A stretch of 64,000 nt of DNA, taken from the IMG/VR virus record IMGVR_UViG_3300024351_000013; one strand, 5' to 3'. Numbering within the stretch: the first letter of the stretch is position 1; the number at the start of each line of letters is the position of its first letter. The DNA is from a virus (lineage: Duplodnaviria; Caudoviricetes). Positions 12,793 to 64,000 of the stretch are shown piece by piece. The notes beneath the pieces are model-generated. The model made no database searches, was not told where the DNA came from, and saw only the letters and a program-made list of their open reading frames with translations. The translations under genes were made by a program, and so were the position numbers.

Positions 12793-12794
12793 AA

Positions 12795-13307
12795 TTAAAT
12801 CCACGAAGGTCGTCTTTCGGGCATACGAAGATAGTTATCAGCAACCCAAGGTTTGGATGCAATATATCTTTTGTATGCTTCAAATGTATCAATGGTGTCG
12901 TCAAACTTCCATTCCTCAGGCATAGCACGAGCAAATGGAGTCACCTCCGTAATCTTACCCTTGGGAAACAAATAGTATGCATCCACAAGGGTTTTATAAC
13001 AGGAGTGAGTTTTATTATACCGCAGGCAGTATTCATCAGACAAGTTCAATCCCCACTTGATTAACCAGTAGGCATTATGGATACTCTCCATAGCCCACTT
13101 TGTGCAGGGGTGATTGCGGAATGCTCCTTTCTCGGTCTTGTAGGGGGTTCCATCTGCCTTAGGGAGGGTGCCATACCCATATCCCCACTTATCAGATGCC
13201 ACGATAGAAAGCATCTGACAACACTCTAATGGCATCTTAACAATATGTTTATCGGGGAGACAGATAGCACTTTCAGCAGGCCATGGTGATGTAACAAATA
13301 TATTCAT
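12795..13307 (-). CDS. Pyrimidine-dimer DNA glycosylase (DenV-like) family protein
   Basis: MNIFVT...LPDKHIVKMPLECCQMLS...NHPCTKW...Y; family recalled, not searched. Confidence 0.65.
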   Translation of the reverse strand: MNIFVTSPWPAESAICLPDKHIVKMPLECCQMLSIVASDKWGYGYGTLPKADGTPYKTEKGAFRNHPCTKWAMESIHNAYWLIKWGLNLSDEYCLRYNKTHSCYKTLVDAYYLFPKGKITEVTPFARAMPEEWKFDDTIDTFEAYKRYIASKPWVADNYLRMPERRPSWI

Positions 13308-16199: not shown

Positions 16200-16909
16200 T
16201 TTTTATTTCGTTCTTCTTGTTTACGCTTTGCAAATTGCATATAAGTTTCACCTGGTTTTAGGCGATTACTATAATCTTGTTTTGTTTGTGCAGATGTATT
16301 TTGACCTCTGTTTTCTCGAGCTCTCATCTTGTTGCCAGCGCCACTAATAGCAGCATCTTTTTTGGGATCTGGATGCCACCAGTCACCCGCCTCACTCATA
16401 TTCTGTTCATAAGTAAATGTCTTGTTTTTAACTTTAGTATCAAACTCACCAGTTCTACCTGGATTCATTTTACCGACTTTAACACGCTTACCCTCTCCTG
16501 GCCAAGACTTATTAGTTCCCACCAGTTGAGCAGAACCCTTTGGTTTTTTTTGAATTAAGACAGAATCTTGATTATATTTTTTACCAAGTTTAGTGATTGC
16601 TTTTTTGAACTTTTTCTTACCCATTTTACCAGAAGAAACTACATGTGATTTCTCACCTACTTTTTTTTCTTGAGGAGTTCCTGGGTTTTCAGTATATCTA
16701 CCAGATACCTTAGTAGGTCCTGGAAGACCAGCACCTCTAATATCTTTCTCCAATTGTTTTGAACGCGCTTTATTTTCTTTCTTTGATTTATCGCCTCTTT
16801 GGGCAGACATAATTGCCATACCACCTTTTTCTGATTTTGAGCGAACTCTATTCAAAGATGTTTCTTGAATAGAGTAACACTCTACCACAAATTCTTGGAA
16901 TGTTTTCAT
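16196..16909 (-). CDS. Very basic hypothetical protein, DUF3293-like core, MKTFQEFVVE N-terminus
   Basis: IMSAQRG...ENKAR..QL..DIR, EKSHVV, LGKKYNQDSVL; CTAAATA at 16944-16950. Confidence 0.8.
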   Translation of the reverse strand: MKTFQEFVVECYSIQETSLNRVRSKSEKGGMAIMSAQRGDKSKKENKARSKQLEKDIRGAGLPGPTKVSGRYTENPGTPQEKKVGEKSHVVSSGKMGKKKFKKAITKLGKKYNQDSVLIQKKPKGSAQLVGTNKSWPGEGKRVKVGKMNPGRTGEFDTKVKNKTFTYEQNMSEAGDWWHPDPKKDAAISGAGNKMRARENRGQNTSAQTKQDYSNRLKPGETYMQFAKRKQEERNKK

Positions 16910-19095
16910 GCTACCAAAGAAATAAATTCTCCTAATACTTTTTTATTTAGTTTTTTAGTCTTCAAAGATTTCACAAAAGCAGATTTGATTTGAGATTTGG
17001 TTGCATCTTCAGCAATTTCAAATTCAGTATCTTGAGAAAGTGCGGTTGCAGACATTCCAAAGTATGCATCATATCCAGAGTTAGTAATAGTGAAACTCTT
17101 CAGTTTTTTCCAATCACTCAGGATTTTATCATACACCTTACCATCATTGATAGAGTGATAAAGACCAATAAACCGACTTGCATTGCGACTTTCAAGAACA
17201 CGAATACCAATAAAGTTTGTATTAGAAAACTTATCTTTCAAGTTCCTGAGAAGAGCATCAGTAAACTCATGATAACCATATCCAATCTTATAGGTAGTTC
17301 CAAGTTTGCGGTCACGCAGGAAGGTTAGTTCTGGATTAATATATCCAGTTCCAAGAAATGGTTTCTTTTCCCACTGGCGTTTGACTTCTTTGTGATAAAC
17401 AAGTTGATTTGCCTCACCATCAGTCAAAACAATACACTGCACCTTCTGAAGTTTATTTTCTTTTTGAAACTTAGGAAGAATTTGGTTAAGAGTAATCAGT
17501 GCCTCATTTAGAGGAGTTCCAGAAAGACAAAGACGACTCGGATAGGTATAAGAAGAACTATAAGTCCTACCAAAACAATAAGCAAGACGCCAAATGTTGA
17601 GCATTTGATTCTCAAGAACTTTACCAGAAACTTTACTAGTAAGAATGTTCATCATCGAGAAAGTTTCATCTACAACCAGAAGACCATCTTTCTTTTGATA
17701 ATGTGGAGTACGGTCTGCAGCGAGATAACGATCATTCTCATAATCATACTCACCGCGACGCCACTCACTAGTAAAAGCATAAACCTCAAAAGGAATGGAA
17801 ACTTTCTTACAAAACCAAACAATGTTAAAGAGTTGTTTACAAGTATCAAGCATCACATCGCACATAGAACCACTCCAGTCCAACACAAATACCAGACCAT
17901 GATTTTTGCCATCAGGAATCACAGATACTTTCTTGAACAAGTCTTCATTGTACTTGTAAGTATGAAGACGAGTTGTATCGAGAATACCAGTGCGAGCAGT
18001 TGATGCACGAGCATACTGGTCTGCTGCCTTACGGCACTCAAATTCTTTTACAAGGTAATTGACTTCTTTTTGGGCAGAAGACTTGAACTTCTTGAACTCA
18101 GTATCAGATTCTTTATAAAGATTTACTGGAGTATATCCCTTTTCTTGTGCGTGTTCATTATGAATTTTTTGTTGATGAGCAAAAGAATCATCAATATCTT
18201 TATGAACTTCAGAGTTCTTACCAATAACAGTATCAAGATTTACTTGAGGAACCTCAATATAAACATTTTCATATCCATCGTTACCCACAAGGTCACGAAT
18301 CTTATCTTCCAAAGACTCTGCAGTGCGAACTTCAGGTTCTTCTTTTTCCCCAGAAGATTTTACAGGAGTTTCATCACCTTGAGCAGTGCCGCCATAGGAC
18401 TCAGAAGACTCTTTTTTGGAGGAGTTATCACTCTCACCTTCTTGCTCAGAAGAGGAGTCATTAGTCTCTACAAAATCGCTTGCAGGAGACTGCGAGTTCC
18501 CTTGAGTTTCTTGCGAATCAAAGTCAGCAACCTTCTGCTGTTGTTCCTTTTCTTTTTTACAATACTTATAAAGTTCTTCAGCAGCAATCAATGTATCTGC
18601 AAAACTTTCACAAGCATCAATGATATTAATGATTTCTTTTTCCTCTGGAGCAAAATCAAGAGTCAAAAAGTTACCAACTTTAAAATAAAGGTTAGCACGA
18701 TCGGCAAGATTAAAAGTAGAAATATCTTCTTCTTTAAGTTGAAAGAAATCTTCTTCGTTCAGTTCCTTATAACCATTGAAGAAAGTCTTAGCAAGTCCAG
18801 CATACTTACGCTTCATCAGTTTCTCAATGCGGGCATCTTCTACCACATTCACAAACTGCTGAGGAACCTTTGCAGTCTCAGTCCAATCTTCATCAGGAGT
18901 GAAGAGAGCATGACCCACCTCATGACCCACCAGAAGGTCATACACAAGACCACTTGCCTTTTCCCACAAAGGAAGGGTGAGAACACGAGTATGAACATTG
19001 AAGCACGCTGTAGGAACTTTCTTGTGCTCCACTACAAGGTCTTCAGTGGCAAGCAGTTTGGCAAGTTGGGATTTGATTTCGTGAGAGACTGCCAT
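16906..19095 (-). CDS. CobT-like protein: N-terminal HExxH metallopeptidase-like domain, acidic linker and C-terminal vWA domain
   Basis: HEVGH; MIDAS DWSGS, GTPL, LTDGE; start re-called at MAVSHE. Confidence 0.85.
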   Translation of the reverse strand: MAVSHEIKSQLAKLLATEDLVVEHKKVPTACFNVHTRVLTLPLWEKASGLVYDLLVGHEVGHALFTPDEDWTETAKVPQQFVNVVEDARIEKLMKRKYAGLAKTFFNGYKELNEEDFFQLKEEDISTFNLADRANLYFKVGNFLTLDFAPEEKEIINIIDACESFADTLIAAEELYKYCKKEKEQQQKVADFDSQETQGNSQSPASDFVETNDSSSEQEGESDNSSKKESSESYGGTAQGDETPVKSSGEKEEPEVRTAESLEDKIRDLVGNDGYENVYIEVPQVNLDTVIGKNSEVHKDIDDSFAHQQKIHNEHAQEKGYTPVNLYKESDTEFKKFKSSAQKEVNYLVKEFECRKAADQYARASTARTGILDTTRLHTYKYNEDLFKKVSVIPDGKNHGLVFVLDWSGSMCDVMLDTCKQLFNIVWFCKKVSIPFEVYAFTSEWRRGEYDYENDRYLAADRTPHYQKKDGLLVVDETFSMMNILTSKVSGKVLENQMLNIWRLAYCFGRTYSSSYTYPSRLCLSGTPLNEALITLNQILPKFQKENKLQKVQCIVLTDGEANQLVYHKEVKRQWEKKPFLGTGYINPELTFLRDRKLGTTYKIGYGYHEFTDALLRNLKDKFSNTNFIGIRVLESRNASRFIGLYHSINDGKVYDKILSDWKKLKSFTITNSGYDAYFGMSATALSQDTEFEIAEDATKSQIKSAFVKSLKTKKLNKKVLGEFISLVA

Positions 19096-50056: not shown

Positions 50057-50852
50057 AGGTTTTTAATTTCTCCAAATCATATTCATTCCACCAAGACTTC
50101 CAATCAATAAAGAAGTCTCTATCATATTCTCCTTGCATATGTAGTGCTAAAGAAGGAATTGGAGTAAAGCAGAAATGTCCTCTTTCATAATAAACCCTAC
50201 AAATACTATCCATTTCCATCGTTTCACTTACCTCACTTGTTCCCATTTTGTGGAACAAGTCCCAGTGCTTTCTAATAATATCAACATGAGTCATTAAAGT
50301 CACTGCTACATGAAAATTAGTTCTCCAATATCTATCTTTTGATACTACAAGATGACAAGGAACTGCAGTGTTTTCTGCTTCGTGATACTCTGCTGGCTTA
50401 TTGAATGGAAAGATACTTGCAGGAGAACCTAGATTACAACTAAACTGATTAATTGCATGTATCATCAGTTCAACAGAGTCTTGTTGATGAAGAAAATCAT
50501 CTTGAACATAATAGACCCAATCTTTTCCATAATCTCTTCCATGTTCGTAGCACCTCAAAATAGATGGCATAATACCATAAGTCTCAAGATGGGTTAGATT
50601 AACTTTGAACTTTGCAATGCTGATAAGTTTTTCTAAAATATCTAAAAATTCTTTGTCCGAGTGGTCATCAAAGATTTGAAGTTCTATTTCATAATCTGGA
50701 TAATGTTCTTGTGCGTAATTGAGACTATCAATCAAAGAAAAGATACACCTTGAAGAAACTTCGATCTTTGGTGCTTCACAATATCTTCCAGAATCTTTAT
50801 CTCGGTTTCCTTTTGAATGAGTCTGGACGACAACTAACAAATGAGTTTTCAT
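50049..50852 (-). CDS. Putative GT-A fold glycosyltransferase
   Basis: IFDDHS, WVYYVQDDFLH, PIPSLALH. Confidence 0.65.
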   Translation of the reverse strand: MKTHLLVVVQTHSKGNRDKDSGRYCEAPKIEVSSRCIFSLIDSLNYAQEHYPDYEIELQIFDDHSDKEFLDILEKLISIAKFKVNLTHLETYGIMPSILRCYEHGRDYGKDWVYYVQDDFLHQQDSVELMIHAINQFSCNLGSPASIFPFNKPAEYHEAENTAVPCHLVVSKDRYWRTNFHVAVTLMTHVDIIRKHWDLFHKMGTSEVSETMEMDSICRVYYERGHFCFTPIPSLALHMQGEYDRDFFIDWKSWWNEYDLEKLKTYV

Positions 50853-51655: not shown

Positions 51656-53335
51656 TTATATCACAGGATCGATGTATGTGAGTGCTACCGAAAACCTATC
51701 TCCACTAGAAACTTGTTTCCAGTTGGTTCCTCCTGCGAATGTAGTGATTGGAGTTGATTTACTAGTACCAGAACCATTGATTCCCTGTTGTCCATTAGAA
51801 TTATCACCCCAAGTCCATAAAGTTCCATCGGTCTTGATTGCTATTGTAATACGACATATATTAGAACCACTACAACCAACTTGTTTCCAGTTGGTTCCTC
51901 CTGCGAATGTAGTGACTGGAGTAGATGCATCGTTTCCAGCACCAGATCTAGTGATTCCTAGTTGTCCCTCATAATTACGACCCCAAGTCCATAAAGTTCC
52001 ATCAGTTTTGATTGCTGCTGTATGATAACCACCACCAGAAACTTGTTTCCAGTTGGTTCCTCCTGCGAATGTAGTGATCGGAGTGGATACATTAGTATTT
52101 GAATTGTTTCCTAATTGTGCAGAAGTATTATAACCCCAAGTCCAAAGAGTTCCATCAGTTTTAATTGCTGTAGAAAAACTACCTCCATTACTTATTTGAC
52201 TCCAATTAGTCCCTCCAGCAAATGTTGTGACTGGAGTTGATCTATTACCAGTAGCATTAATTCCAAGTCTTCCAAAAGATCCATCACCCCAAACCCATAA
52301 AGTTCCATCAGTTTTGATTGCCGCTATATGGCCTCTTCCGGCAGTAACTTGTTTCCAGTTGGTTCCTCCTGTGAATGTAGTGACTGGAGTTGATTTATTA
52401 TCTGTTGCAGCGTTTCCCATTTGTCCGACAAAACCACGACCCCAAGACCATAAAGTTCCATCAGTTTTAATTGCTACAGTAGAACGATAACCTCCAGCAT
52501 TAACTTGTTTCCAGTTGTTTCCTCCTGCGAATGTAGTGACTGGAGTTAATTTATTGGTTGTTGTACTGTCTCCTAGTTGTCCAGTATTATTACTACCCCA
52601 AAGCCATAAAGTTCCATCCGTTTTAATTGCTGCAGTATGAGTGTCTCCACAAGAAAGTTGTTTCCAATTGGTTCCACCAGCAAATGTTGTGATTGGAGTG
52701 AGTTTACCAGTTGTTGTATTGTCTCCTAGTCGTCCATCAGAATTAGTGCCCCAAGTCCATAAGTTTCCTTCACGAAACAAATCAGCAGGAACAAAAACAT
52801 TATCAAAACTATAAGTCAATCCATCATTACCTGTTACTATACTTCCATAGGTTGGAACATAAACACCAGCAGAAGATTTTCTTTCTATTTGAACTCCCCA
52901 AAAATCAAGAACAAGATTTGTATTGTTATCAGAATATAAGTCAATAAAACTTTTTGCGGTTGCTGTTGGAACTCCACTTGTAGTTACTCTTACCCACTGA
53001 TTAGTAATTAATTGTGATGAGTAATCAACTGAAGGACTTCCATCTGCTAAATCAGTAAATGCACTACCAGTTCCACTAATTCTCCTTACAAAAAAACTTG
53101 TCGTATAAGTATCAGTTCCGTTGGGAGTGAATGAAGGAAAATTAACTCTTAATAATGCATTAGTTGTATTATTGCATGTAAATCTAATTGCTGTATTTGT
53201 TCCATCAGGTGCAGTTATTCCTGTAGTTATTGTTGCACCTGCGGGAAAATTATTAATCCACGTAACAGTCCCTTCATAAGTGGAATATGCCACTAAATTT
53301 TCTCTATTGTTGATAAAATTATAAAATACTGGCAT
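51656..53335 (-). CDS. RCC1/BLIP-II 7-repeat beta-propeller protein with an inserted N-terminal lectin-like domain
   Basis: Seven LW.WG...LG...STPVTTFAGGTNWKQV units; about 160-aa insert after MPVFYNF. Confidence 0.85.
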   Translation of the reverse strand: MPVFYNFINNRENLVAYSTYEGTVTWINNFPAGATITTGITAPDGTNTAIRFTCNNTTNALLRVNFPSFTPNGTDTYTTSFFVRRISGTGSAFTDLADGSPSVDYSSQLITNQWVRVTTSGVPTATAKSFIDLYSDNNTNLVLDFWGVQIERKSSAGVYVPTYGSIVTGNDGLTYSFDNVFVPADLFREGNLWTWGTNSDGRLGDNTTTGKLTPITTFAGGTNWKQLSCGDTHTAAIKTDGTLWLWGSNNTGQLGDSTTTNKLTPVTTFAGGNNWKQVNAGGYRSTVAIKTDGTLWSWGRGFVGQMGNAATDNKSTPVTTFTGGTNWKQVTAGRGHIAAIKTDGTLWVWGDGSFGRLGINATGNRSTPVTTFAGGTNWSQISNGGSFSTAIKTDGTLWTWGYNTSAQLGNNSNTNVSTPITTFAGGTNWKQVSGGGYHTAAIKTDGTLWTWGRNYEGQLGITRSGAGNDASTPVTTFAGGTNWKQVGCSGSNICRITIAIKTDGTLWTWGDNSNGQQGINGSGTSKSTPITTFAGGTNWKQVSSGDRFSVALTYIDPVI

Positions 53336-53340
53336 TTCTT

Positions 53341-53706
53341 TTATTTTGGAGGAATCTCTACAAAAACAACTGGAGTATTCATTTTTTCACTCCAGTTTTG
53401 AAGATATTGTTTAACTTCAGAATTCATTTCTTTATTATTTATTGGAAGAACTTTTAGATATTGACCATCTCCACTTCCCTCAACAGAGACCAGAACATCA
53501 CACTTATCAGGTCGCATTTCTTCTGGTAGTAAATGCTGCGTCCAAGCACATTGATAGTCTCTACAAGATTCTGGTCGTGCCTTATGAACTCCACAACCAT
53601 TACATTCCAGATACTTACAAGACTTTCCTGCACCAAACTCCCAAGCAAAAGCATCACCAATCAACCAAGTACAACAAGCAGTACATTCTCCACATTCACG
53701 AAACAT
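53341..53706 (-). CDS. YkgJ-like cysteine-cluster (Zn/Fe-S) protein
   Basis: CGECTACC...C.YL...GC..H..RP..C..Y.C; start re-called at MFRECG. Confidence 0.75.
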   Translation of the reverse strand: MFRECGECTACCTWLIGDAFAWEFGAGKSCKYLECNGCGVHKARPESCRDYQCAWTQHLLPEEMRPDKCDVLVSVEGSGDGQYLKVLPINNKEMNSEVKQYLQNWSEKMNTPVVFVEIPPK

Positions 53707-54352
53707 AATCATCCTCCTTATAATAGTAAGTATATGAATCAAAAATTCCCGGTTGGTATATTGTTTTTGGATTTGAATTTGGATTACTTCCAATCCAAAG
53801 TTCTCTATCTATACGATAATCACTATAAAGAAACTTATGGTCTAGTGTTTGGATATGTTTGGCATTGGACCACCAAAAATTTCCAGTAAAATTATAAGTT
53901 CCTTCTAATGGTTTGGTGGTTGTACCATCAGACCATAAAGTTTCTCCCACAGAATTTAGATTTGAACCAACACAATCATATTCATCCAACATTTCCACAC
54001 ACTCTTTCCACCTATCAATTACAAAATACTCCATCATCAATCTCCAAGCATTTGCAATCAAAGTTCCTTTGCTTGCTCCCTTAGTGTGAAAATACAAAAT
54101 TTTATAATCCGGATTTTCATGCGCAAAATCTTTTAATGCAATCATCGTTTCCGTTTCTTCTGTCCAATTTTTATTGTAAACGACTTTTGCTTTTGTTGGT
54201 ATATAAAACATTTCTTGGCTGCCATTTACTCCAATATGAAAATGATCTATTTTATTCATTAGACCAGATACAAATAATCGATTAATCTGTTGTTGGTAGA
54301 TAAATGCGGAAATTTCATTTTGAAATGTATGATAAAAAACTGCTAACTTCAT
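53696..54352 (-). CDS. Hypothetical protein, putative glycosyltransferase-like
   Basis: ILYFHTKG, WRLMMEY, GNFWW, RELWIG; located in the glyco operon. Confidence 0.55.
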   Translation of the reverse strand: MKLAVFYHTFQNEISAFIYQQQINRLFVSGLMNKIDHFHIGVNGSQEMFYIPTKAKVVYNKNWTEETETMIALKDFAHENPDYKILYFHTKGASKGTLIANAWRLMMEYFVIDRWKECVEMLDEYDCVGSNLNSVGETLWSDGTTTKPLEGTYNFTGNFWWSNAKHIQTLDHKFLYSDYRIDRELWIGSNPNSNPKTIYQPGIFDSYTYYYKEDDYVS

Positions 54353-55137
54353 GTATGATACACCCCACCATTTTCGCCAGACATCCCCTTTACCATTGTA
54401 AGACCAAGATTTGGAACACTAATGATATTGTTCTTGTTTATAAATCGATAAAGTGAATGTTCTACATCAGTTCCAGAAGTAAATTGTATCATTTTTTCCA
54501 TATAAGTAAATGCCCCTTCAAGAGCCTCAACCGCTTCATTAAATAAAACTCTATCAAAAGACCAAAGACCAGTATTCATCATACCTTTTGCACCATATAA
54601 GTATGCATAGACATTTTCAAGATTACTTTCATTGAAACTTTCACCTTCTTCCAAAAGATAATCGTATTTTTTTACAATATATTTTCCTTCCAGAAACTTA
54701 CTTTCATAATCTTTAATATCAAAATGATCATTCAATAAGTATCTACCAGTAAGTTTAAAAACTCTTTGACTATCAGTGAATAGATTGTGCTGTTTAATTT
54801 CATAAAGAGTATTGAGTAATCCTCTTGTTTCCAACAATGATTTGCCATAAGTAATCAATTCTGGTCTTTCTTCAAGATTTTCATAAATTTGCTTTAGTAC
54901 TGGTTCATCATAAAACTCTAAAAACAAATCTGATTTTTCTTTAAGAATATCTTTTTGTTTCTCATCAATAGGTTTAGAAGAACACTCAAATAAAACCACA
55001 TAAGACTCTGAAACTTTCTTACGAATACATTCAATCGTTTCTAATGTTTGATTGAATCTCTGTTCTTCATTATAAGCACTAAACTCATCCTCTTTAAAAT
55101 GTTTGAGTGCTGAACCGACTAAAAATAAAAATTTCAT
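54349..55137 (-). CDS. Hypothetical protein, putative glycosyltransferase-like
   Basis: RFNQTLETI, VFKLTGRY; ATGA-coupled. Confidence 0.5.
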   Translation of the reverse strand: MKFLFLVGSALKHFKEDEFSAYNEEQRFNQTLETIECIRKKVSESYVVLFECSSKPIDEKQKDILKEKSDLFLEFYDEPVLKQIYENLEERPELITYGKSLLETRGLLNTLYEIKQHNLFTDSQRVFKLTGRYLLNDHFDIKDYESKFLEGKYIVKKYDYLLEEGESFNESNLENVYAYLYGAKGMMNTGLWSFDRVLFNEAVEALEGAFTYMEKMIQFTSGTDVEHSLYRFINKNNIISVPNLGLTMVKGMSGENGGVYHT

Positions 55138-55592
55138 AAGTAATCTGTATTAAAACTAATAATAATTCTTTCTTCTGTTTCTTCTTCCGTATAATGAACT
55201 AAATCACTTGAGAAGATAACCAACAATCCAGGATAAGGTTTAATTGATGTATCTGGAAAAATGAGTGGAGTGCTTCCAGAAATATAAAATGCTCCACTTA
55301 TAATACTTTCTCCATGATTATGTGCTTTGAGTTTATTTCCTGGTTGTGAGATATTGAACCAACTATTGATAAACTTTAGAGGTGAAATCTCATACTTATT
55401 ACAATACAGTCTAACATATTGCTTAAGAACATTTCTTAATCCAGTCAGTTCTGAATACATTAAAGTAGGCATTCCATGATTATAAGTAGAAACACCTTTT
55501 GTTATAAGTCCGTGAGAAGCAGTTTCTATTTCAAGAAGTTTGCTCTTGATGGTATTTAGATTTAAAAAAGAAAGATTATATTCCTCTATCAT
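55134..55592 (-). CDS. Putative 2OG-Fe(II) oxygenase (TIGR02466-like)
   Basis: SWFN, AHNH..ISGAFY, LVIFSS.L.H, R..ISFN. Confidence 0.8.
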   Translation of the reverse strand: MIEEYNLSFLNLNTIKSKLLEIETASHGLITKGVSTYNHGMPTLMYSELTGLRNVLKQYVRLYCNKYEISPLKFINSWFNISQPGNKLKAHNHGESIISGAFYISGSTPLIFPDTSIKPYPGLLVIFSSDLVHYTEEETEERIIISFNTDYL

Positions 55593-56925
55593 TCAAAAAC
55601 TCTCCTAGTTGCTTCAGTGGTTCATCCCAGTTTCTTGGTTTCTTTTGTCGGAACAGATGAATATTATCTCCATACCACATACACTTTCCTGTAGAGGAAG
55701 TCCAAACATAATATTCCATAATAGGAACAAAGACACAGACTTCTTTACCCATTGATGCTGCTACATGTGCCACAAAACTACAAGAAGTCACTACCAAATC
55801 AAGGTTCTTGATGATTGAGAATGTGTCGGCATATTCTCTATTAGGAACTGATAGTGATTGTTTGATTTCGGGATACTCATTGGCATCCTTATTATCACTG
55901 TGAGTTTGAAGTGAATAAAGTGAGTATCCTTTGTTTCCAAGAACACTCATATAGTCTTTGAGTTCTACTGAACGGAAAGTGTTCTGCTCGAACCCAGAAC
56001 TAGAAGCCCAGAACATTCCAACCTTATATCCAGTGTCTTCTTTTATCCACTCCCATTTCTTATCGTATTCTGGGAGTGTTTGGAGATAAGGTTCTCTTCC
56101 CATATCTTTGAGTTGCAGATTGAGATAATATGGAAGTGCCAGACCATAAACCCAGAAAGCATCTTTAGGAAACTCTGGTTTATCCCAAATACAAACAGCA
56201 TCATATCCATTATGTTTGAAGAGTTCTACAAGTTCTCTGCGAGTAGAACTCCAAATTGGTTTCATTCCCAAGTCTTTGAGGTGTTTCATAAACCGAATAT
56301 GAATGACTTCATCACCGGCGCCACATTGATTATCTACAATGATCGTTCTTCCTGGCGTCACTGTTCCATCCCATTTTTCAAAATCGGGATGTTTTTGATT
56401 CTTATATGCTTCTACTTCCCCTGCTTTGAGAAAGTGTTGAAGTCCCGTATGAATATCATCCTTACGGAAATAATGTCCTGATAGATTATGATATGCTTTT
56501 CTTTCAATCTCTTCTGGTAGTTTATATTTGAGAAGATTGAAGAGTAGTTTTTCTGACTTCTCTTTTTGATTGAGTGCAGAATACGCGAAGGTTTCCTCAA
56601 GAAGCAATTCAGTATCTTGCGGATTTATCTTCTTGCACTTATCAATTTGGGTAATAGATTTCTCTGGATGATTTGATTGATTATATGCATTAATCAAATT
56701 CATAGAGGTCGTATATTTTTCTTCTTTTGTTTGTGCTAATTTGAGAGACTTTTCTCCATACTCAATTGCCTTGGAGAAGTTCTTAAGTTCAAAAAATATT
56801 TTTGCTACATCATTATATTGAGAAAAAACTTGTGCTTGTTTTCCAAAGGCATCAAGTAATTCGAATGTTAGTTGCTGTTCTTTAAATGAATATAATGTCT
56901 TTGCTACCAATTCAAGTGGGTTCAT
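55576..56925 (-). CDS. TPR protein fused to a GT9-like (GT-B) domain
   Basis: N-terminal TPRs; W.G....TI.V....G.GD.I..IRF, DLVVTSCS.VAH.AASMG. Confidence 0.75.
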   Translation of the reverse strand: MNPLELVAKTLYSFKEQQLTFELLDAFGKQAQVFSQYNDVAKIFFELKNFSKAIEYGEKSLKLAQTKEEKYTTSMNLINAYNQSNHPEKSITQIDKCKKINPQDTELLLEETFAYSALNQKEKSEKLLFNLLKYKLPEEIERKAYHNLSGHYFRKDDIHTGLQHFLKAGEVEAYKNQKHPDFEKWDGTVTPGRTIIVDNQCGAGDEVIHIRFMKHLKDLGMKPIWSSTRRELVELFKHNGYDAVCIWDKPEFPKDAFWVYGLALPYYLNLQLKDMGREPYLQTLPEYDKKWEWIKEDTGYKVGMFWASSSGFEQNTFRSVELKDYMSVLGNKGYSLYSLQTHSDNKDANEYPEIKQSLSVPNREYADTFSIIKNLDLVVTSCSFVAHVAASMGKEVCVFVPIMEYYVWTSSTGKCMWYGDNIHLFRQKKPRNWDEPLKQLGEFLNDRGI

Positions 56926-56947
56926 ATTGAATAATTTATTTTGTAGG

Positions 56948-56954
56948 TATTTAG
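56948..56954 (-). promoter_or_regulatory. Late-promoter-like CTAAATA at the head of the modification operon
   Basis: CTAAATA 23 nt upstream of the 56925 ATG; the same box precedes g3 and 40542. Confidence 0.55.
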
Positions 56955-56959
56955 ATACC

Positions 56960-58165
56960 TCATAAATTGTCAGAGCTTTTAATTGTCGCTATATGACCAC
57001 CTCCAGCTGAAACTTGTTTCCAATTGGTCCCTCCAATAACTGTTGTGACTGGAGTGGATCTAGTAATTGTGTCATTAGTTCCAAGTCTTCCACTATTACC
57101 ACTACCCCAAGTCCATAAAGTCCCATCAGTCTTGGTTGCTACTGTATGACCCTCGCCAGTAGAAACTTGTTTCCAGCTAGTTCCCCCTGCAAATGTTGTA
57201 ACTGGAGTTGTAAAATTGCCAGATGTGCCCCCATTTCCGAGTCTTCCAAAACTAGCATAACCCCAAGACCATAAAGTTCCGTCATTCTTCACTGCCGCTG
57301 TATGGGTATCTCCAGCAGAAGCTTGCTTCCAGTTGTTCCCTCCAGCAAATGTTGTAACTGGAGTACATCTGTTGGTGAATCCACCATCTCCTATTTGCCC
57401 CTGTGCTCCGCGTCCAAAAGTCCATAAAGTTCCATCAGTCTTTATTGCGACATTATGATGAAAGAAAGCATGGACACTTCTCCAATTAGTTCCTCCAGCA
57501 AGTGTTGTGACTGGAGTAGATATTGCAACTGTACTATTAATTCCAAGTTGTCCGTAAGTTCCATCCCCCCAAGTCCATAAAGTCCCATCAGTCTTGGTTG
57601 CTATGACATGACGATATCCGCCACTAACTGTTCTCCAATTAGTTCCTCCTGCAAATGTTGTGACGGGGGTAAGTTTGTTTGTTGCCGTATTGTCACCAAG
57701 TCTACCAAATCCCCCTGGACCCCAAATCCATAAAGTTCCGTCAGTTTTTATTGCCATCGTATTATTGAGTCCTACACTCAAATATTTCCAATCAGTTCCT
57801 CCTGCAAATGTTGTGACGGGAGTAAGTTTGTTAATTGTTGTATTGTCTCCAAGTCTACCACCACTATTATTGCCCCAAGTCCACAAAGTTCCATCAGTCT
57901 TGGTTGCTACAGTATGAAATCTTCCTGCAAAAACTTGCTTCCAGTTAGATCCTCCTGATAATGTTGTGATTGGGGTTGATTTATTGGTTGTTGTATTATC
58001 TCCCAAAACTCCACTATTACCGTATCCCCAAGACCACAACTCCGGAGTCTTTCCAATTTGTTGAGCAATATTTGGATAAACACTCATTAAGTATTCTTTG
58101 GTAATTAATTTATTACCAAGGTCAGTTCCAAAACTATCCCCAAAATTAGTTACTGGATTTGGCAT
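56960..58165 (-). CDS. RCC1/BLIP-II 7-repeat beta-propeller protein
   Basis: Seven repeats of KTDGTLW.WG / TPVTTFAGG.NWK. Confidence 0.9.
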   Translation of the reverse strand: MPNPVTNFGDSFGTDLGNKLITKEYLMSVYPNIAQQIGKTPELWSWGYGNSGVLGDNTTTNKSTPITTLSGGSNWKQVFAGRFHTVATKTDGTLWTWGNNSGGRLGDNTTINKLTPVTTFAGGTDWKYLSVGLNNTMAIKTDGTLWIWGPGGFGRLGDNTATNKLTPVTTFAGGTNWRTVSGGYRHVIATKTDGTLWTWGDGTYGQLGINSTVAISTPVTTLAGGTNWRSVHAFFHHNVAIKTDGTLWTFGRGAQGQIGDGGFTNRCTPVTTFAGGNNWKQASAGDTHTAAVKNDGTLWSWGYASFGRLGNGGTSGNFTTPVTTFAGGTSWKQVSTGEGHTVATKTDGTLWTWGSGNSGRLGTNDTITRSTPVTTVIGGTNWKQVSAGGGHIATIKSSDNL

Positions 58166-58166
58166 A

Positions 58167-58835
58167 TCACTCTATTGGTGGTTGAGGAATTTCTGGAAGT
58201 TCTCTCACAATCACATCATAAACCTCATCAATTGTCGTGCAAGCATCAATCTCTTGAAGTTTTGCAAGTTCCCAATCAAATGCATCTTGAACTACTTTAT
58301 CAATTTCACTGATAATAGTTTGAAGATTTTCTGTGGTAACTTCTAACCAAGCATTGGCAAACTTATAATTATGAGGACCTGGTGCTGCACTTAACTTACT
58401 TGCTAGCATCAACCTTTCTTCTCTTGAAGTTGATACTTGAACTGAATTACCATTAATATCTAAGGCAATTGTCGTATTTTCTTTTTCTTTTCTATATGGA
58501 GCAACTTCTTGCTTACGAATTACTTTGACTTCTTCTAGACTCTTATCAATAATTGGATAAGTAAATACTACTTTGATTGGAGTACCATCTTCTTCAATAA
58601 TTTCCCAAGTAAGATTTCCGATGTTGTGATACTTTGGATCATGTTCTGGAATTACTTTTTCAATTGGCAGAAGATGTGTAAGACCATCACTAAAATGAAT
58701 TGGAAGGTCTGTATAACTTTGTGGAGAAATTCTTTCTTCTACTTCAAGGTCTTCCAAATCGGCATTAATGTATTTCACATTAAATCCCATTGGGCCAAGT
58801 TCTAATGAATTATTATGAATAAGTGCGATTTCCAT
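58167..58835 (-). CDS. DUF4376-like protein (possible fibre assembly chaperone)
   Basis: V.TSREER, VQDAFDWE...L.EI; sits between fibre-like genes. Confidence 0.65.
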   Translation of the reverse strand: MEIALIHNNSLELGPMGFNVKYINADLEDLEVEERISPQSYTDLPIHFSDGLTHLLPIEKVIPEHDPKYHNIGNLTWEIIEEDGTPIKVVFTYPIIDKSLEEVKVIRKQEVAPYRKEKENTTIALDINGNSVQVSTSREERLMLASKLSAAPGPHNYKFANAWLEVTTENLQTIISEIDKVVQDAFDWELAKLQEIDACTTIDEVYDVIVRELPEIPQPPIE

Positions 58836-58852
58836 AGCAATTTTTTAAGTAT

Positions 58853-60037
58853 TTATGATATTGGTAGGTCTGGTGTGGTTCCAGAGAAGACTGCTGATGT
58901 ATGTCGAAATTCTGCAGAAACTTGTTTCCAGTTAGTTCCTCCTGCAAAAGAAGTAACTGGAGTATTTTTTTGAATTGAATCATTGGCTCCAAGTTGAGCA
59001 TAAGCAGATGAACCCCAGATCCATAAGGTTCCATCAGTTTTAATTGCTGCGGTATGAGAATCTCCACCAGAAATTTGTTTCCAGTTAGTTCCTCCAGAAA
59101 ATGTTGTTGATGGAATTGATTTTTTGAGGGTTATCGTATTATCTCCCAATTCACCTCTAGCACCATAACCCCAAGTCCATAAGGTTCCATTAGTTTTAAT
59201 TGCTGCTGTATGATATCCTCCAGAAGAAACTTGTTTCCAGTTGGTTCCTCCAGTAAATGTTGTGATTGGAGTGTTTTTTTGGATTGTTGTATTGTCTCCC
59301 AAATTCCCATAATTATTATAACCCCAAAGCCATAAAGTCCCATCGGTTTTAATTGCTGCCGTGAAAACACCGCCACCAGAAACTTGTTTCCAGTTGGTTC
59401 CTCCGGCGAATGTTGTGACTGGGGTTGATCTATGGACTGTGGTATTATCTCCTATTCCTCCGAATGAATTGCGTCCCCAAAGCCATAGAGTTCCATCGGT
59501 TTTAGTTGCTGCAATATGGCCACCTCCACAAGAAACTTGTTTCCAGTTAGTTCCTCCAGAAAATGTAGTGACTGGAGTACTTCTGGCACCTGTGGCGTTA
59601 ATTCCTATTTGTGAATACTGATTCAGTCCCCAACACCACAAAGTTCCATCAGTTTTTATTGCTGCTGCATGATATTGTGCAGAAGAAACTTGTCTCCAGT
59701 TGGTTCCTCCAGCAAATGTAGTGACTGGGGTTGATTTTGTGACTGATGTATTGTCTCCTAATATTCCAAAGGAATTAATTCCCCAAGTCCATAAAGTCCC
59801 ATCAGTTTTTATTGCTGCTTTATTTTTAAATCCACCGGCAACTTGTTTCCAGTTGGTTCCTCCAGCAAATGTAGTAACTGGAGTAGATCTATTACCAGTA
59901 GCGTTGATTCCCAATTGGCTAACATCATTACGCCCCCAAGTCCATAATTCATCACCAACCCACTGGTCTATCAACCAAGATTCAGTGACAAAATAATTTT
60001 CCAAATCTCCTTCTGGTGAGAAAAACTGATTAGGCAT
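58853..60037 (-). CDS. RCC1/BLIP-II 7-repeat beta-propeller protein
   Basis: Seven repeats of the same consensus. Confidence 0.9.
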   Translation of the reverse strand: MPNQFFSPEGDLENYFVTESWLIDQWVGDELWTWGRNDVSQLGINATGNRSTPVTTFAGGTNWKQVAGGFKNKAAIKTDGTLWTWGINSFGILGDNTSVTKSTPVTTFAGGTNWRQVSSAQYHAAAIKTDGTLWCWGLNQYSQIGINATGARSTPVTTFSGGTNWKQVSCGGGHIAATKTDGTLWLWGRNSFGGIGDNTTVHRSTPVTTFAGGTNWKQVSGGGVFTAAIKTDGTLWLWGYNNYGNLGDNTTIQKNTPITTFTGGTNWKQVSSGGYHTAAIKTNGTLWTWGYGARGELGDNTITLKKSIPSTTFSGGTNWKQISGGDSHTAAIKTDGTLWIWGSSAYAQLGANDSIQKNTPVTSFAGGTNWKQVSAEFRHTSAVFSGTTPDLPIS

Positions 60038-60110
60038 TTAACTTTTTCTCCAACTCTTCGATACGAACCTGTTGTTCTTTAATTGCTTCAATCAATACAC
60101 CCACAAGATT
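60031..60110 (-). pseudogene. Orphan 3' end of a peptidase-S74 (intramolecular chaperone) fibre gene
   Basis: NLVGVLIEAIKEQQVRIEELEKKLNA-stop with no start codon; 38/44 nt identical to 63707..63750. Confidence 0.75.
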
Positions 60111-60140: not shown

Positions 60141-61349
60141 TTAAACACCAAATCTTCCACGAGTAGCATTAAAGTTCTGTTGAACTTCTGATGCTGAAAG
60201 AACGCGATTATAAAAAACACATGAACTCATAAATCCATCAAAATTTACTCCGTTTGCACTAACGCTCTGTCCAATTTTTGCATTATTACCAGTACCAGTA
60301 TAAGCACCTCCCCCAGTGTGAGAGTTGTCCAAAACACCATTTATATAAATTCTTTTTGCATATGTTGTGTTGTTTAATGTAAAAACAATATGATACCATG
60401 TTCCAGTACTTAAAGTTCTTGTCCCAGATAGATCATCAAAAAACATTCCAAAATAAAGACGACTATTTCTTTGATTTAAATGAAGAGCAGTTCTTGTACC
60501 AAATGAACCATGTTGCAATAAAACTTTATCACTAGAATCAACGCTAGTTGTGTTTATAGTATCAAAATTTACCCAAAAACTGATAGTCCAGTTTCCTTGA
60601 AAAAAAGAATCAGTTAATCCAGTTGGAACAATGTGATCATTACTGCCATCAAAAACAAGAGTTCCTCCATTAGAACCGCTGTAAAATGGGCCATTTGTCA
60701 AAGTTCCGGTATTACTATTACCACTCAAGTCTCTAAAAACACTGCCTCCATAATAACTTGATGTAAATGAAGTTGGTGTAGTTGTTCCTGATGGCACTCT
60801 TTCTACTTGAAGACCATCCCACCATATAGTTTGTCCAGTTCCGCCAGTGTCTGGTCCATCTAATCTTACATGAATATAAGCAATGGTCGCATCAGCCATT
60901 GTTACATAATAATTCACTCTTGTCCATTCTGTAGTAATATTAAAAGTTGTTGATGTTATTGTTAACCATGCACCATTAACAAATCCTGTACCTGAACTAT
61001 TGGCACCAAATATAAAAATTTGTCCAGTTGTTGCAACATCTGCTTTGACATAAACACTTACAACCCAAGTCTGTCCATTTGCTGCTGGTGCAATATTCCA
61101 AGTAGAACTATTGTAAGTTCCTATATGTGGGTCATTTCCAGTTACTGCCATTTTCAGTGGAGTATTGCCAACTGGAGAACTTATTGTATCTCTTGAAATT
61201 GTACAAGCATTTAAACCAGCGGTTGAGCACCAAGTAAAAATATCAGTAGAATATTGAAACTCATTTTGAGAATAAGATTTCTTATTTGCTGGATCAAGTG
61301 CAAGAACCAACCCCGTCTCTGATGTATCTGGACCGCTATAAACTCCCAT
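60141..61349 (-). CDS. LamG/concanavalin-A-like virion protein with an internal carbohydrate-binding-like domain
   Basis: GLVLALD..N.KSY, DLSGNSNTGTLTNGP, WYHIV, YNRVLS..EV.QNFNA.RGRFG. Confidence 0.8.
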   Translation of the reverse strand: MGVYSGPDTSETGLVLALDPANKKSYSQNEFQYSTDIFTWCSTAGLNACTISRDTISSPVGNTPLKMAVTGNDPHIGTYNSSTWNIAPAANGQTWVVSVYVKADVATTGQIFIFGANSSGTGFVNGAWLTITSTTFNITTEWTRVNYYVTMADATIAYIHVRLDGPDTGGTGQTIWWDGLQVERVPSGTTTPTSFTSSYYGGSVFRDLSGNSNTGTLTNGPFYSGSNGGTLVFDGSNDHIVPTGLTDSFFQGNWTISFWVNFDTINTTSVDSSDKVLLQHGSFGTRTALHLNQRNSRLYFGMFFDDLSGTRTLSTGTWYHIVFTLNNTTYAKRIYINGVLDNSHTGGGAYTGTGNNAKIGQSVSANGVNFDGFMSSCVFYNRVLSASEVQQNFNATRGRFGV

Positions 61350-62878
61350 TAGATTCCAAACCTCCCTCTTAATGCGTTAAAATTTTGTGAAATTTCATCA
61401 GCACTCAATGCAGCATTATACATTTTTACGCATCCAACATTGTTTTCTGAATAGTAATAAAAGGCACCAGTATTTCCATCTCCCGCACCACCTAATCTTA
61501 AATCATCACTAGTTCCAGAAAAAGCAGTAGATGTTAAGGTATCAGTTTTCTTAAGAACTCCATTTAAATATGTCTTAAAAGTAGTCCCAGATTTTGTTAC
61601 TGCAACATGAAACCATTGACCTTCAATAATGTCAGTTCCGGATGTTCCTAAAGATAAACTCGTTAGATTTTTTATTGTTGGTCCGGTATTATCCCAAATA
61701 TAATACAACAAAGAACTGGCATTATATAAAAACATACTGTGGTATCCTCGATAAGTGACTAAAACACTTTCTCCCTCACAAGTATCGTATAGTGTTGGAT
61801 TTCTATCATTAATTCTTGCCCACACTTCTGTCGTATGGTCATTATACAGATATGTATTGGAAGCAAGAGCACCAGAAGCAGTTACACTCATATTACCACC
61901 AATCTTATATGCACCAGTCATTGCCCTAGAAGTTACGGTTCCCATATTGGCACTTAAGTTATAAGTTCCTGCTCCACCAGTTCCCGTTCCAAACGATGAA
62001 ATTGTAAGAGCTGGTGTTAATCCGGTGTATGATAGTGCCATTCCATTTGTAATGGTTCCACTTGAAACTGCAGATACTGTAAGAACTGTTCCTGAAATAG
62101 ATCCAGTAAAGTCTGCAAAGGTTTCATTGCGATCAAATCTTATAGAGTTAGTTGTTGCATCGTAAGAGATATATTGTGGTTGATTAATTGTATGAGAATA
62201 GTTTGAGATTGTTGATGTTGCTGTTGTTGGTCTTGTGACTGTTGATGCTACTGTTTGAACATATGGTGATGCTGATGCTTGCGACCCCCTTTCGACTTGC
62301 CATCCCCACACATAAACATTGTGTCCAGAGACATTGGAAGTTCCTTGATCTCTTACATAAACTCTAGAAACCGCTCCAGTATTATCTCCACTATTATAGG
62401 TAACAATTGCTCTATACCAACCATCTGGATATTGAATTAGTTGTGAAGTTGCAGTTGTTCCCGCAGTTGTGGTTAAATATGTTGTTGGACTGGAACCCCA
62501 AGTAATCTCTAAAACTGCCTGCCTAAAAGTTCCTACAGTAAAATATAAATTTATTGTACTTTTTGGACTAGTTCCAGACTTAAGAAAAACTGAAAATGTA
62601 TAGTTTGTATTTGTAGTTACTACTAAGTTTTTATCGACATTGCAAGTATTTGAACCTCCATTTGTGGTTGAAGTTAAAGTATCTGCAGTTAATGTTCCGT
62701 TAGGAGAAACAATGCTATTTGTTGTTATTGATACGTCACTTGAGAAACTATTCTGCGATATGTCTTCACTGTAAGTTATTAAATTTTCACTGCCATTATA
62801 GCATTTCTGAATGTTTCCGAAGTCCAAGTTGAGTAACAAATTTCGTGTTACTATCTGTGGCGAATGAGAGAGTCCCAT
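61349..62878 (-). CDS. LamG-like virion protein with an N-terminal spike/CBM-like domain
   Basis: NLITYSE..SPNGT.TAD...WGWQVE; WFHVAVT...YLNG, YNAALS.DEI.QNFNALRGRFGI. Confidence 0.8.
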   Translation of the reverse strand: MGLSHSPQIVTRNLLLNLDFGNIQKCYNGSENLITYSEDISQNSFSSDVSITTNSIVSPNGTLTADTLTSTTNGGSNTCNVDKNLVVTTNTNYTFSVFLKSGTSPKSTINLYFTVGTFRQAVLEITWGSSPTTYLTTTAGTTATSQLIQYPDGWYRAIVTYNSGDNTGAVSRVYVRDQGTSNVSGHNVYVWGWQVERGSQASASPYVQTVASTVTRPTTATSTISNYSHTINQPQYISYDATTNSIRFDRNETFADFTGSISGTVLTVSAVSSGTITNGMALSYTGLTPALTISSFGTGTGGAGTYNLSANMGTVTSRAMTGAYKIGGNMSVTASGALASNTYLYNDHTTEVWARINDRNPTLYDTCEGESVLVTYRGYHSMFLYNASSLLYYIWDNTGPTIKNLTSLSLGTSGTDIIEGQWFHVAVTKSGTTFKTYLNGVLKKTDTLTSTAFSGTSDDLRLGGAGDGNTGAFYYYSENNVGCVKMYNAALSADEISQNFNALRGRFGI

Positions 62879-63648
62879 TAGATTTCAAACCTCCCTCTAA
62901 GTGCATTAAAGTTTTGTGAAATTTCTGCTGTTGTTAGAGCTCTATTATAAACTTGAACATTACTTATTGATCCCTCAAAATTATGATACCCTGTAGATGG
63001 TGTATTTAATGATGCAGTATTACCAATATCAATATTGTATATTTGCACTGTAGCAGTTCCAACTGTTAAAGTTGTTGGTGAAGATGCATTTAGATACCCA
63101 TAAGCAACAGAACCATTCCAAGTTACTACTGCATTATACCAAGTGTTTGTATTTACTAATGTGTTTGATATTGGGGTATTTGTGCCCCTAATAGCAGCAA
63201 CACATTTATTTGTATTTGTGCCATAAACAGTAGATGTTCCAGCAACAAATATTCCAAATGTCGCTCCAGTTGCAATACCGCCACTTCTTCCGAAAATATG
63301 ATAAGAACAATTTCCACCATTCAATGCATCACTTCTTGATTGTGTTGGAGAAACTGGAAATTTAAACCAAGCAGAAACACTCCAAGATCCATTTGTATCT
63401 GCAAAAAGATTATTAGCAATTGTAAAACTGGAATTGCCATTTGTTACATAATCATCAACTCCATCAAAAACAATAGATCCACCATTAGAACTATTGTAAG
63501 TAGGACCATTAGTTAAAGTTCCAGTATTACTATTACCACTCAAATCGGTCCAAGTCGCTCCACTTCCGGGATAACTCTTTGTATTTCCAGCATCAAGTGC
63601 TAATACAAGACCATTTGTAACTGTGCCGGGATTATAAGCAACTGCCAT
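62878..63648 (-). CDS. LamG-like virion protein
   Basis: GLVLALDAGN.KSYPGSG.TW.DLSG, WYNAVVTW, YNRALT..EI.QNFNALRGRF. Confidence 0.82.
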   Translation of the reverse strand: MAVAYNPGTVTNGLVLALDAGNTKSYPGSGATWTDLSGNSNTGTLTNGPTYNSSNGGSIVFDGVDDYVTNGNSSFTIANNLFADTNGSWSVSAWFKFPVSPTQSRSDALNGGNCSYHIFGRSGGIATGATFGIFVAGTSTVYGTNTNKCVAAIRGTNTPISNTLVNTNTWYNAVVTWNGSVAYGYLNASSPTTLTVGTATVQIYNIDIGNTASLNTPSTGYHNFEGSISNVQVYNRALTTAEISQNFNALRGRFEI

Positions 63649-64000
63649 TATGAAAAATCCTTTTCCTTCAAACTCTTAATTTCTTCCTTAAGGATATTTA
63701 TTTGTTCTTGCTGTTCTTTGATTGCTTCAATCAATACGCCAACAATATTTCCATAAGATACTGACTTAAGACCATCTTCGTTTTCTGCAACAACTTCTGG
63801 AAGTACCTTCTCAATATCTTGTGCAATCACACCAATTGAAGGTTGACTATTTTCATCTTTCCACTTATATCTTACACCCTCAAGTTGAGTTACTAAAGAT
63901 AGTGCATTTTTAATTGGTTGAATATCAGTTTTTTGTGTCCTATCAGATAGTGACGTAAATACTGTTGCGGATAATGTTCCTGTTGATGGATTAAAAGTGC
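63648..64000 (-). CDS. Tail-fibre gene 3' end with a peptidase S74 chaperone domain (partial)
   Basis: Frame open to the window edge: SDRTQKTDI..I.NAL..V..L.GV.Y.WK...IGVIAQ..EKVLPEVV...VSYGNIVGVLIEAIKEQQ. Confidence 0.9.
   Translation of the reverse strand, partial: TFNPSTGTLSATVFTSLSDRTQKTDIQPIKNALSLVTQLEGVRYKWKDENSQPSIGVIAQDIEKVLPEVVAENEDGLKSVSYGNIVGVLIEAIKEQQEQINILKEEIKSLKEKDFS

Follow-up and report, generated by a model that had tools for sequence, protein, structure and literature searches.

The evolution of phage host range is usually explained by point mutation, by modular swaps of fibre tips or by diversity-generating retroelements (DGRs). Here, we describe three genes, referred to as A, B and C, that encode RCC1-like beta-propellers and lie within positions 51,656 to 60,037 of a 64,000-nucleotide (nt) stretch of viral DNA (IMG/VR record IMGVR_UViG_3300024351_000013; Duplodnaviria; Caudoviricetes), the whole of which we call the window. 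We give a probability of roughly 0.6 to the reading that they are RCC1-like-domain (RLD) paralogues belonging to a tail-fibre and host-recognition module, in which a specificity face built from two loops per blade is diversified by selection, gene conversion and the turnover of propellers.

The closest mechanistic analogue of these propellers is a fungal one, namely the repertoire of WD40 repeats in the HNWD, HET-E and HET-D NLR proteins of Podospora anserina. According to a preprint (bioRxiv 10.1101/2025.01.13.632504), which also summarises earlier work on their high internal conservation (Paoletti 2007; Chevanne 2010), these repeats combine, like the phage blades, a conserved propeller scaffold with a few hypervariable face positions under diversifying selection, and they evolve by recombination-driven exchange, concerted evolution and changes in repeat number, including between paralogous loci. 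The fungal repeats are of the WD40 and not the RCC1 type and are 80–100% identical, as against 59% (protein) and 67% (DNA) for those of the window, and they belong to an intracellular NACHT immune receptor of a eukaryote, whereas the window genes encode stand-alone phage proteins in a putative tail-fibre module. Among phage systems, the DGR of Bordetella phage BPP-1 is similar in that its target, Mtd, is a binding protein with a fixed scaffold and few hypervariable surface positions, but it needs a reverse transcriptase and a template repeat, makes adenine-specific changes and acts on a C-type lectin fold instead of a propeller.

RCC1-like propellers are themselves known from phage virions. 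The PHROG 4219 proteins of Escherichia coli phage W70 (gp237–239; PMC11370258) and GAP_001 of Cronobacter phage GAP32, which carries the RCC1/BLIP-II InterPro domain IPR009091 (PMC5259590), were identified as virion proteins by mass spectrometry, and RCC1-like genes are also multi-copy in phages 121Q and PBECO4 (PMC11370258, PMC5259590), these genomes having several tandem or nearby paralogues each. The W70 and GAP32 papers, which concern enterobacterial hosts, suggest a part in DNA condensation, assign no binding role and contain no analysis of hypervariable loops or conversion; the three cyanophage proteins described here likewise match PHROG 4219 (E 3e-39 for A, 1e-36 for B and 5e-45 for C). 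Highly repetitive RCC1/BLIP-II propellers, with blades that are unusually alike, make up about 10% of the set of Pereira and Lupas (2022; PMC9218822), whose overall highly repetitive dataset includes viruses, the viral status of its RCC1/BLIP-II members being unstated; the likeness is explained there by recent amplification of a single blade, and loop hypervariability, conversion tracts and a tail-fibre context are not described. The eukaryotic proteins UVR8 (4DNW), HERC2 (7Q40) and RCC1 (1A12) share both the seven-bladed fold and sequence homology with the phage propellers, but have diverged blades (about 25–30% identical), fixed partners and no internal hypervariability, and the phage proteins lack their context of Ran guanine nucleotide exchange factor (Ran-GEF), photoreceptor or E3 ligase. 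The literature searched contained no description of hypervariable RCC1 proteins in cyanophages, or of such behaviour in phage RCC1 proteins, and the paper on the nearest isolate, the freshwater Synechococcus phage S-SRM01 (Kyanoviridae; DNA ~79% identical across part of the region), is silent on RCC1 genes and reports no proteomics.

Three paralogous seven-bladed propellers

The products of A, B and C each contain exactly seven repeats anchored by an LWxWG motif, with a period of 51 residues (units of 51–58 residues), just as had been counted in an earlier interpretation made from the DNA letters without database searches (hereafter the sequence-only reading). Seven stretches per protein match Pfam RCC1 (PF00415; 194–207 bits against a cut-off of 21.7), and all three proteins match WD40_RLD (PF25390) at 237–250 bits (cut-off 150; E about 1e-70). 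An AlphaFold2 model of B built on a 52-row alignment (predicted local distance difference test, pLDDT, 89.2; predicted template modelling score, pTM, 0.86) contains 28 strands, arranged as seven four-stranded blades, and sets the register of the repeat, with strands at columns 1–5, 20–25, 33–38 and 42–47 and the first to fourth loops at columns 6–19, 26–32, 39–41 and 48–51. For A, a single-sequence AlphaFold2 run gave an unusable model (pLDDT 39), and its N-terminal domain was characterised through PHROG and the Atlas instead.

The best of the 50 Foldseek matches listed for the B model, out of at least 500, are UVR8, the RLDs of HERC1 and HERC2, RPGR and RCC1 (template modelling, TM, scores 0.79–0.91; E 1e-30 to 1e-34), with UVR8 and the HERC2 RLDs at the top (0.80–0.91), and the 31 PDB sequences matched at E up to 1e-5 include UVR8, HERC2 and RCC1 (E 1e-24 to 1e-46), RCC1 itself (1I2M and 1A12) being at 2e-24. 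The sequence-only reading had classed the repeats as RCC1/BLIP-II; no BLIP-II chain occurs among those 31 sequences or among the 50 folds listed, and BLIP-II is only a superfamily cousin of the window propellers, to which UVR8, HERC1/2, RPGR and RCC1 are nearer. A, B and C are paralogous seven-bladed RLD beta-propellers. Bacterial hosts have no Ran, so that an RCC1-type Ran-GEF function is not expected of phage propellers.

Hypervariable loops, probably on one face

The common 51-column register holds 1,141 blades, and column entropy was computed on 448 blades of 64 distinct genes. Just over half of the columns (27 of 51) have less than 1 bit, and 12 exceed 2.5 bits, namely columns 6, 8, 9, 11, 16–19, 38 and 40–42, which sit in the first and third loops and at their edges (38 and 42), the second and fourth loops being conserved. 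Variability after the WG (columns 6, 8, 9 and 11) and around the S-x-G-x-x-H motif (columns 38 and 40–42) had both been noticed from the sequence, and these positions are indeed among the most variable of the family; a third variable stretch, columns 14–21, lies beyond those named at the time.

An up-and-down beta-meander brings alternate loops to the same face. Since the hypervariable loops are the first and third of four, the variable loops would share one face of the propeller and the conserved loops the other, a placement that we infer from strand topology and homology. It agrees with the single variable face on a fixed scaffold that had been anticipated, and with the alignment of columns 40–41 to the Trp-Arg position of the UVR8 interface motif (GWRHT, of the form G-x-x-H-T), which we take to lie on the interaction face of UVR8.

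The hypervariable columns are under diversifying selection (omega > 1). Across eight unsaturated orthologous or paralogous pairs, the ratio of non-synonymous to synonymous change (dN/dS) is 1.8–2.9 at hypervariable codons, about 1 at intermediate columns and 0.1–0.2 in the framework. How fast the loops have turned over can be judged from the block of five genes between B and A (53341..56925), whose order is kept in S-SRM01 and on the five JGI contigs L055–L059 and which serves as the divergence baseline for the propellers. Two of its products, a tetratricopeptide repeat (TPR) protein and a 2-oxoglutarate (2OG) oxygenase, are 91% (dS 0.83) and 82% (dS 0.57) identical to their S-SRM01 counterparts. 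At 23 variable columns, the identity of a window blade to the syntenic S-SRM01 blade is 0.28–0.33, as against 0.31–0.35 to any other blade; positional orthology at these columns is lost between the two phages. Each window blade has its nearest neighbour in another phage, at no particular blade position, and the propeller tree is star-like.

A tail-fibre setting

S-SRM01 has three syntenic RCC1 genes, gp335, gp337 and gp344, which come directly after its long-tail-fibre and baseplate genes. On L055, which carries the closest relative of C (P0013, 89% amino acid, aa, identity), a Peptidase_S74 fibre gene (940 aa) has its stop codon within the start of the C orthologue, the two overlapping, and the window retains the last 25 residues of that fibre protein as a remnant directly upstream of C. 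The S74 C-terminus, recognisable by its ...GVLIEAIKEQQ... motif, is present in two copies, at 60040–60108 and at about 63650–63830 (minus strand), with the intact copy ending near 63650 and three Laminin_G_3 genes (60141–63648) in between; this looks like the insertion of a 3.6-kb LamG cassette through recombination at the S74 C-terminal segment. The DUF4376-like protein encoded between C and B matches PHROGs 10508 and 1141, both annotated as 'tail fiber protein', and its gene is found at this place in 24 distinct related loci, where it falls into two allele classes (about 70–87% and about 41–49% identical to that of the window). A complex prediction for B with this protein gave a median score of 0.18 (mark 0.32), which is evidence neither way.

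The N-terminal domain of A has PHROG matches among tail and tail-fibre families (E about 1e-5), matches an Atlas cluster of CBM_4_9 domains (feature score 0.93; TM 0.63–0.70) and shares 77% identity with the N-terminal part of a 762-aa protein encoded upstream of the fibre genes of locus L010, while the orthologues of A in S-SRM01 and L055 are without this CBM_4_9-like jelly-roll. A thus appears to be a fusion of a domain resembling a carbohydrate-binding module (CBM) onto an RCC1 propeller. From this setting, and by analogy with the virion proteins of other large phages, we lean slightly towards regarding the propellers as virion-exposed accessory binders of a variable host surface structure.

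They could instead be non-virion effectors, intracellular or secreted, which, as BLIP-II does, bind their targets and inhibit them, here variable proteins of the host (e.g. enzymes of defence or of surface remodelling), in which case the loops would record an arms race with those targets. We think this unlikely. It draws on the use of RLD propellers as generic scaffolds for protein–protein interaction, with solved partners, on the interleaving of the genes with those for a 2OG oxygenase, a sulfotransferase and glycosyltransferases (the latter two kinds directly following A, at 50849 and downstream) and on the fact that the proteins of this phage come without virion evidence; nor is there an exact late promoter, TATAAATA, near or upstream of the three genes, a TATAAATC about 70 nt upstream of C being uninformative. 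Such effectors are harder to reconcile with the translational coupling of the L055 gene to an S74 tail-fibre gene, with the CBM-like fusion and the LamG neighbours, which indicate a fibre module, with the detection of PHROG 4219 members in virions by mass spectrometry (PMC11370258), and with the absence of BLIP-II both from the sequence matches at E up to 1e-5 and from the top 50 folds listed, out of at least 500.

Framework DNA and exchange between blades

The 21 blades, which the sequence-only reading had called near-identical, are less alike than that, with pairwise identities of 56–80% in DNA (mean 67%) and 43–76% in protein (mean 59%), DNA identity exceeding protein identity on average; they fall short of the repeat identity of at least 80% within a gene by which HNWD genes are recognised. 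The longest exact run shared among them is 42 nt and the median longest run is 14 nt. The recurrence of framework strings within and between genes is nonetheless as had been described, one 21-mer occurring in 3 exact copies and in 17 at up to 2 mismatches and one 26-mer in 4 and 12, where chance predicts none of either. Codon identity between blades at framework columns is 66%, as against 42% expected from the codon usage of the window, and non-preferred codons (e.g. GTC, AAC, TTA and ACC) are fixed at several of these columns. Across the family, framework synonymous codon identity is 0.71 within genomes and 0.65 between them, and the proportion of synonymous differences (pS) between the framework of A and that of its S-SRM01 orthologue is 0.23, flanking genes giving about 0.5. 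Blades at the same position of different genes are exactly as alike as blades at different positions (66.9% in both cases), and the blades group strictly by neither position nor gene, their nearest neighbours being at arbitrary positions, as the sequence-only reading had required.

The same locus is found in 53 IMG/VR loci and on the five JGI contigs, that is on more than 50 freshwater viral contigs, and it is here that recombination is demonstrable. Loci L009 and L052 are 99.3% identical over 9.2 kb, and their 66 differences make up three patches and a single isolated site, which lies in the same gene. The first blade of an RCC1 gene contains one of these patches, a tract of 74 nt with synonymous framework changes included, and the L009 version of it is 4 of 69 nt away from blade 1 of a paralogue. 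A recombination patch at L009 7792–8102, again relative to L052 and in two phages with 100% identity elsewhere over 9 kb, runs from the 3' part of the DUF4376-like gene into the RCC1 gene that follows, of which it takes in the first ~100 nt; linkage or a physical interaction might lie behind this and behind the two DUF4376 allele classes. Of within-genome blade pairs, 0.22% have in common a near-identical 54-nt tract that includes a variable loop, as against 0.010% of between-genome pairs (a ~20-fold enrichment), and individual blade pairs are mosaic: stretches of 60–108 identical nt lie right next to a diverged loop, and the breakpoints occur in both directions.

The lineage nearest to the window provides a second view of this process. 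Comparison of C with P0013 shows that loops 1 and 3 are kept blade by blade and that loop 2, here the variable stretch with columns 15 and 19, has been replaced in blades 4–7 (12–16 of 45 nt differ); within P0013, 63 nt of blade 2 recur exactly in blade 7, as a copy, while blades 4 and 6 differ at 2 of 45 nt. The P0013 allele recurs unchanged on 19 contigs, drawn from several samples, and is therefore not an assembly chimera, and L055 differs from L058 by 1 nt in 16.9 kb. The blades of A on L055 differ from one another at 13–32 of 153 nt, nearing the 80% identity that the window blades miss. Exact tracts of 55–77 nt link B (11879–13105) and A (16747–17934) of L055 in the pairs B2–A5, B6–A4, B5–A2 and B4–A1, which suggests that, in the lineage closest to the window, several blades were exchanged between these paralogues.

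Blades and whole propellers are also gained and lost. Gene A of L057 (16747–17778), from an otherwise-identical population, equals that of L055 minus exactly blade 2, a difference for which assembler collapse is a possible cause; L056 and L059 have lost parts of the DUF4376 and sulfotransferase regions and of the 3' region of gene A, losses that are either real structural variants or assembly collapses. Genes of the family encode 7, 14, 21 or about 33 blades, with two to four RCC1 genes per locus. Giant RCC1 polypeptides, equivalent to three to five propellers in tandem and counting 19, 21 and about 33 blades, are found at L036 2–5233 (partial, as it ends with its contig), L033 9835–13311, L040 6267–9776 and L053 2537–6853. 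At least 7,970 proteins in the databases match C at E up to 1e-20. An apparent five-residue difference between L022 and L031 was rejected as an hmmalign artefact, the two loci differing at 1 nt.

In the window itself, the best candidates for exchange are loop 2 of A4 and C1 (5 of 45 nt differ) and framework runs of 38–42 nt among A5–A7. Exchange has taken place in the family and in the lineage of the nearest relative, and the window itself bears at most weak traces of it. The blade exchange envisaged by the sequence-only reading is in this sense partly upheld: recombination is demonstrable in relatives, but it moves sub-blade tracts or whole propellers rather than whole blades, and mosaicism within the window falls short of significance (see below). 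Whole-blade swapping as the main mode was rejected, the tracts being of 45–110 nt. The machinery it invoked, UvsX, UvsY and UvsW, has homologues in the window, the last as a UvsW-like helicase, and UvsX/UvsY may mediate the exchange. The likeness to variable lymphocyte receptors (VLRs) did not survive: none of the three genes is an incomplete germline gene awaiting completion from flanking cassettes, and the same sequences recur in many samples. Change is thus germline and evolutionary in scale and not a VLR-like assembly. The proposed independence from reverse transcription is supported, as S-SRM01 and two 100%-complete relatives gave no reverse transcriptase match (RVT_1, E up to 0.01) in a search in which control genomes did, and the 116 mismatches of seven near-identical blade pairs include all 12 substitution types, with A in 31 (first blade) and 37 (second); a DGR target was rejected on these two grounds.

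Weighing the proposed mechanism

In the mechanism that we propose, the locus would be part of a tail-fibre, host-recognition module in a freshwater T4-like cyanomyovirus related to S-SRM01. The strands and the loops at columns 26–32 and 48–51 would be held near-invariant, and the loops at 6–19 and 39–41, with columns 38 and 42, would form the specificity surface. Diversification would take three routes, namely amino acid substitution under diversifying selection, short-tract gene conversion, from blade to blade within a gene or from one paralogue to another, that starts and stops in conserved framework DNA, and the duplication, fusion and loss of whole propellers and single blades. The conversions would be mediated by the phage's own UvsX/UvsY system, and the outcome would be a germline turnover on an evolutionary scale, with no programmed shuffling. 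A more far-reaching version, which we hold only tentatively and consider doubtful, is that the framework DNA is kept, partly at synonymous sites, as a substrate for recombination, with the T4-type UvsX/UvsY machinery copying loop-sized cassettes from blade to blade, whether among the 21 or more of a single genome or across phages that co-infect a cell; this would retune a multivalent host-binding surface, and with it host range, independently of reverse transcription, and would be the counterpart in phages of the WD40 repertoire of fungal NLRs.

Several points weigh against the proposed mechanism. The virion location and the binding activity of the window proteins are putative, and the enzymes encoded after the locus (glycosyltransferase, sulfotransferase and oxygenase) leave a non-structural role possible. 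The argument for one variable face is made from strand topology and homology. As the hypervariable columns were picked by their variability, their dN is biased upward, and conversion tracts inflate both pairwise dN and pairwise dS, the dN/dS values having been obtained without a recombination-aware model. The family-wide synonymous conservation could stem from selection on mRNA and not from homogenisation, and most of the relatives are known from metagenome assemblies, where a collapsed repeat can pass for the deletion of a blade. Within the window, mosaicism is not significant (pairwise homoplasy index, PHI, test, p=0.057), the closest pair of variable loops is 4 of 33 nt apart, with no near-identical variable loop, and of six genomes compared the window is the least homogenised, with its median longest identical run of 14 nt set against 20–24 nt in the others.

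The PHI result and the low homogeneity are also what would be expected if no exchange were going on in the window, its blades being old descendants of one amplified blade that are kept similar by structure and codon preference, with loops that drift neutrally and with the conversions of relatives as incidental repeat instability. A star-like tree fits this as well, as does the commonness of single-blade amplification in RCC1/BLIP-II propellers (PMC9218822). We nevertheless hold it to be improbable, given that dN/dS at the hypervariable codons exceeds neutrality, that the framework codons fixed include non-preferred ones, that the framework pS of A is about half that of flanking genes, that tract sharing is so strongly enriched within genomes and that C differs from its nearest relative in loop-sized tracts.

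Potential N-glycosylation sites follow a pattern of their own. N-x-S/T sequons occur at 2.0–2.5 per 100 residues in the three propeller proteins, as against 0.72 in other window proteins, and are concentrated in loop 2, at column 15 in 36% of blades and at column 19 in 26%, and T, N and S are ~2-fold enriched in the hypervariable columns. That the propellers are mainly substrates or scaffolds for the glycosylation and tailoring island whose sulfotransferase and glycosyltransferase genes begin directly after A, with loops carrying glycans that decorate or camouflage the virion and with variability reflecting shifting glycosites, is nevertheless very improbable, the sequon excess being a consequence of the richness in T, N and S, which is common in fibre proteins, and the most variable columns (6, 8, 9, 40 and 41) not being sequon positions.

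The locus and its genome

The genome is that of a T4-like myovirus. Encoded in the window, all on the minus strand, are a DNA polymerase, a gp41-like helicase, gp46/47 homologues, UvsX, UvsY and the UvsW-like helicase, a late sigma factor, and the major head protein, portal, sheath and terminase. The 8.4-kb span from A to C also holds six genes other than those for RCC1 proteins, encoding the DUF4376-like, TPR and 2OG oxygenase proteins and three hypothetical ones (Table 1).

Table 1. Coordinates of the propeller genes, their parts and the genes around them in the window.
Feature	Position	Strand	Remarks
RCC1-like gene A	51656..53335	-	559 aa; complete open reading frame; Pfam RCC1/WD40_RLD
A, CBM_4_9-like N-terminal domain	52826-53335	-	aa 1-170
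A, N-terminal peptide	52763-52825	-	aa 171-191
A, blades	51659-52762	-	
Three hypothetical genes	54349-55137, 53696-54352, 53341-53793	-	between B and A
2OG-Fe(II) oxygenase gene	55134-55592	-	Pfam; between B and A
TPR protein gene	55576-56925	-	Pfam; between B and A
RCC1-like gene B	56960..58165	-	401 aa
B, N-terminal segment	58040-58165	-	42 residues
B, seven blades	56963-58039	-	
DUF4376-like gene	58167..58835	-	222 aa; between C and B; stop 1 nt before B start; Pfam E 1.3e-4 (weak)
RCC1-like gene C	58853..60037	-	394 aa
C, conserved N-terminal peptide	59948-60037	-	30 residues
C, seven blades	58856-59947	-	
Peptidase_S74 fibre C-terminus remnant	60040..60108	-	startless; directly upstream of C; stop overlaps ATG of C

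In four riverine runs (Logan contigs), which may be the source of the window, the dominant contigs match it with 0 differences, rare variants being invisible in contigs. These runs contain low-depth joints between blades (depth 12–40 as against 70–300), the sides of which are shorter than 40 nt, and, close to the ends of contigs in gene A, minor variants; both are indistinguishable from related phages or graph artefacts and were not used as evidence. Over window positions 56209–56928, in the TPR gene, runs X14 and X20 hold a minor contig (depth 11–16 as against 79–90) whose TPR allele has 88 differences in 720 nt, which indicates that these river samples also contain a related phage or else a recombinant allele.

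Implications for phage specificity

Beside the three usual explanations of host-range evolution, the locus presents a fourth pattern, found in abundant freshwater cyanophages, in which a frozen propeller scaffold carries two loops per blade with their orthology erased while the flanking proteins remain 82–91% identical, and in which short-tract conversion and changes in the copy number of whole propellers add to the turnover of the loops. If the propellers are non-structural, they would still be a clear arms-race protein family in phages. If they are virion-borne binders, they would offer a tractable natural scaffold for studying or engineering the specificity between cyanophages and Synechococcus, and would account for the multi-copy RCC1-like proteins that recur, without an assigned role, in the virion proteomes of large myoviruses.

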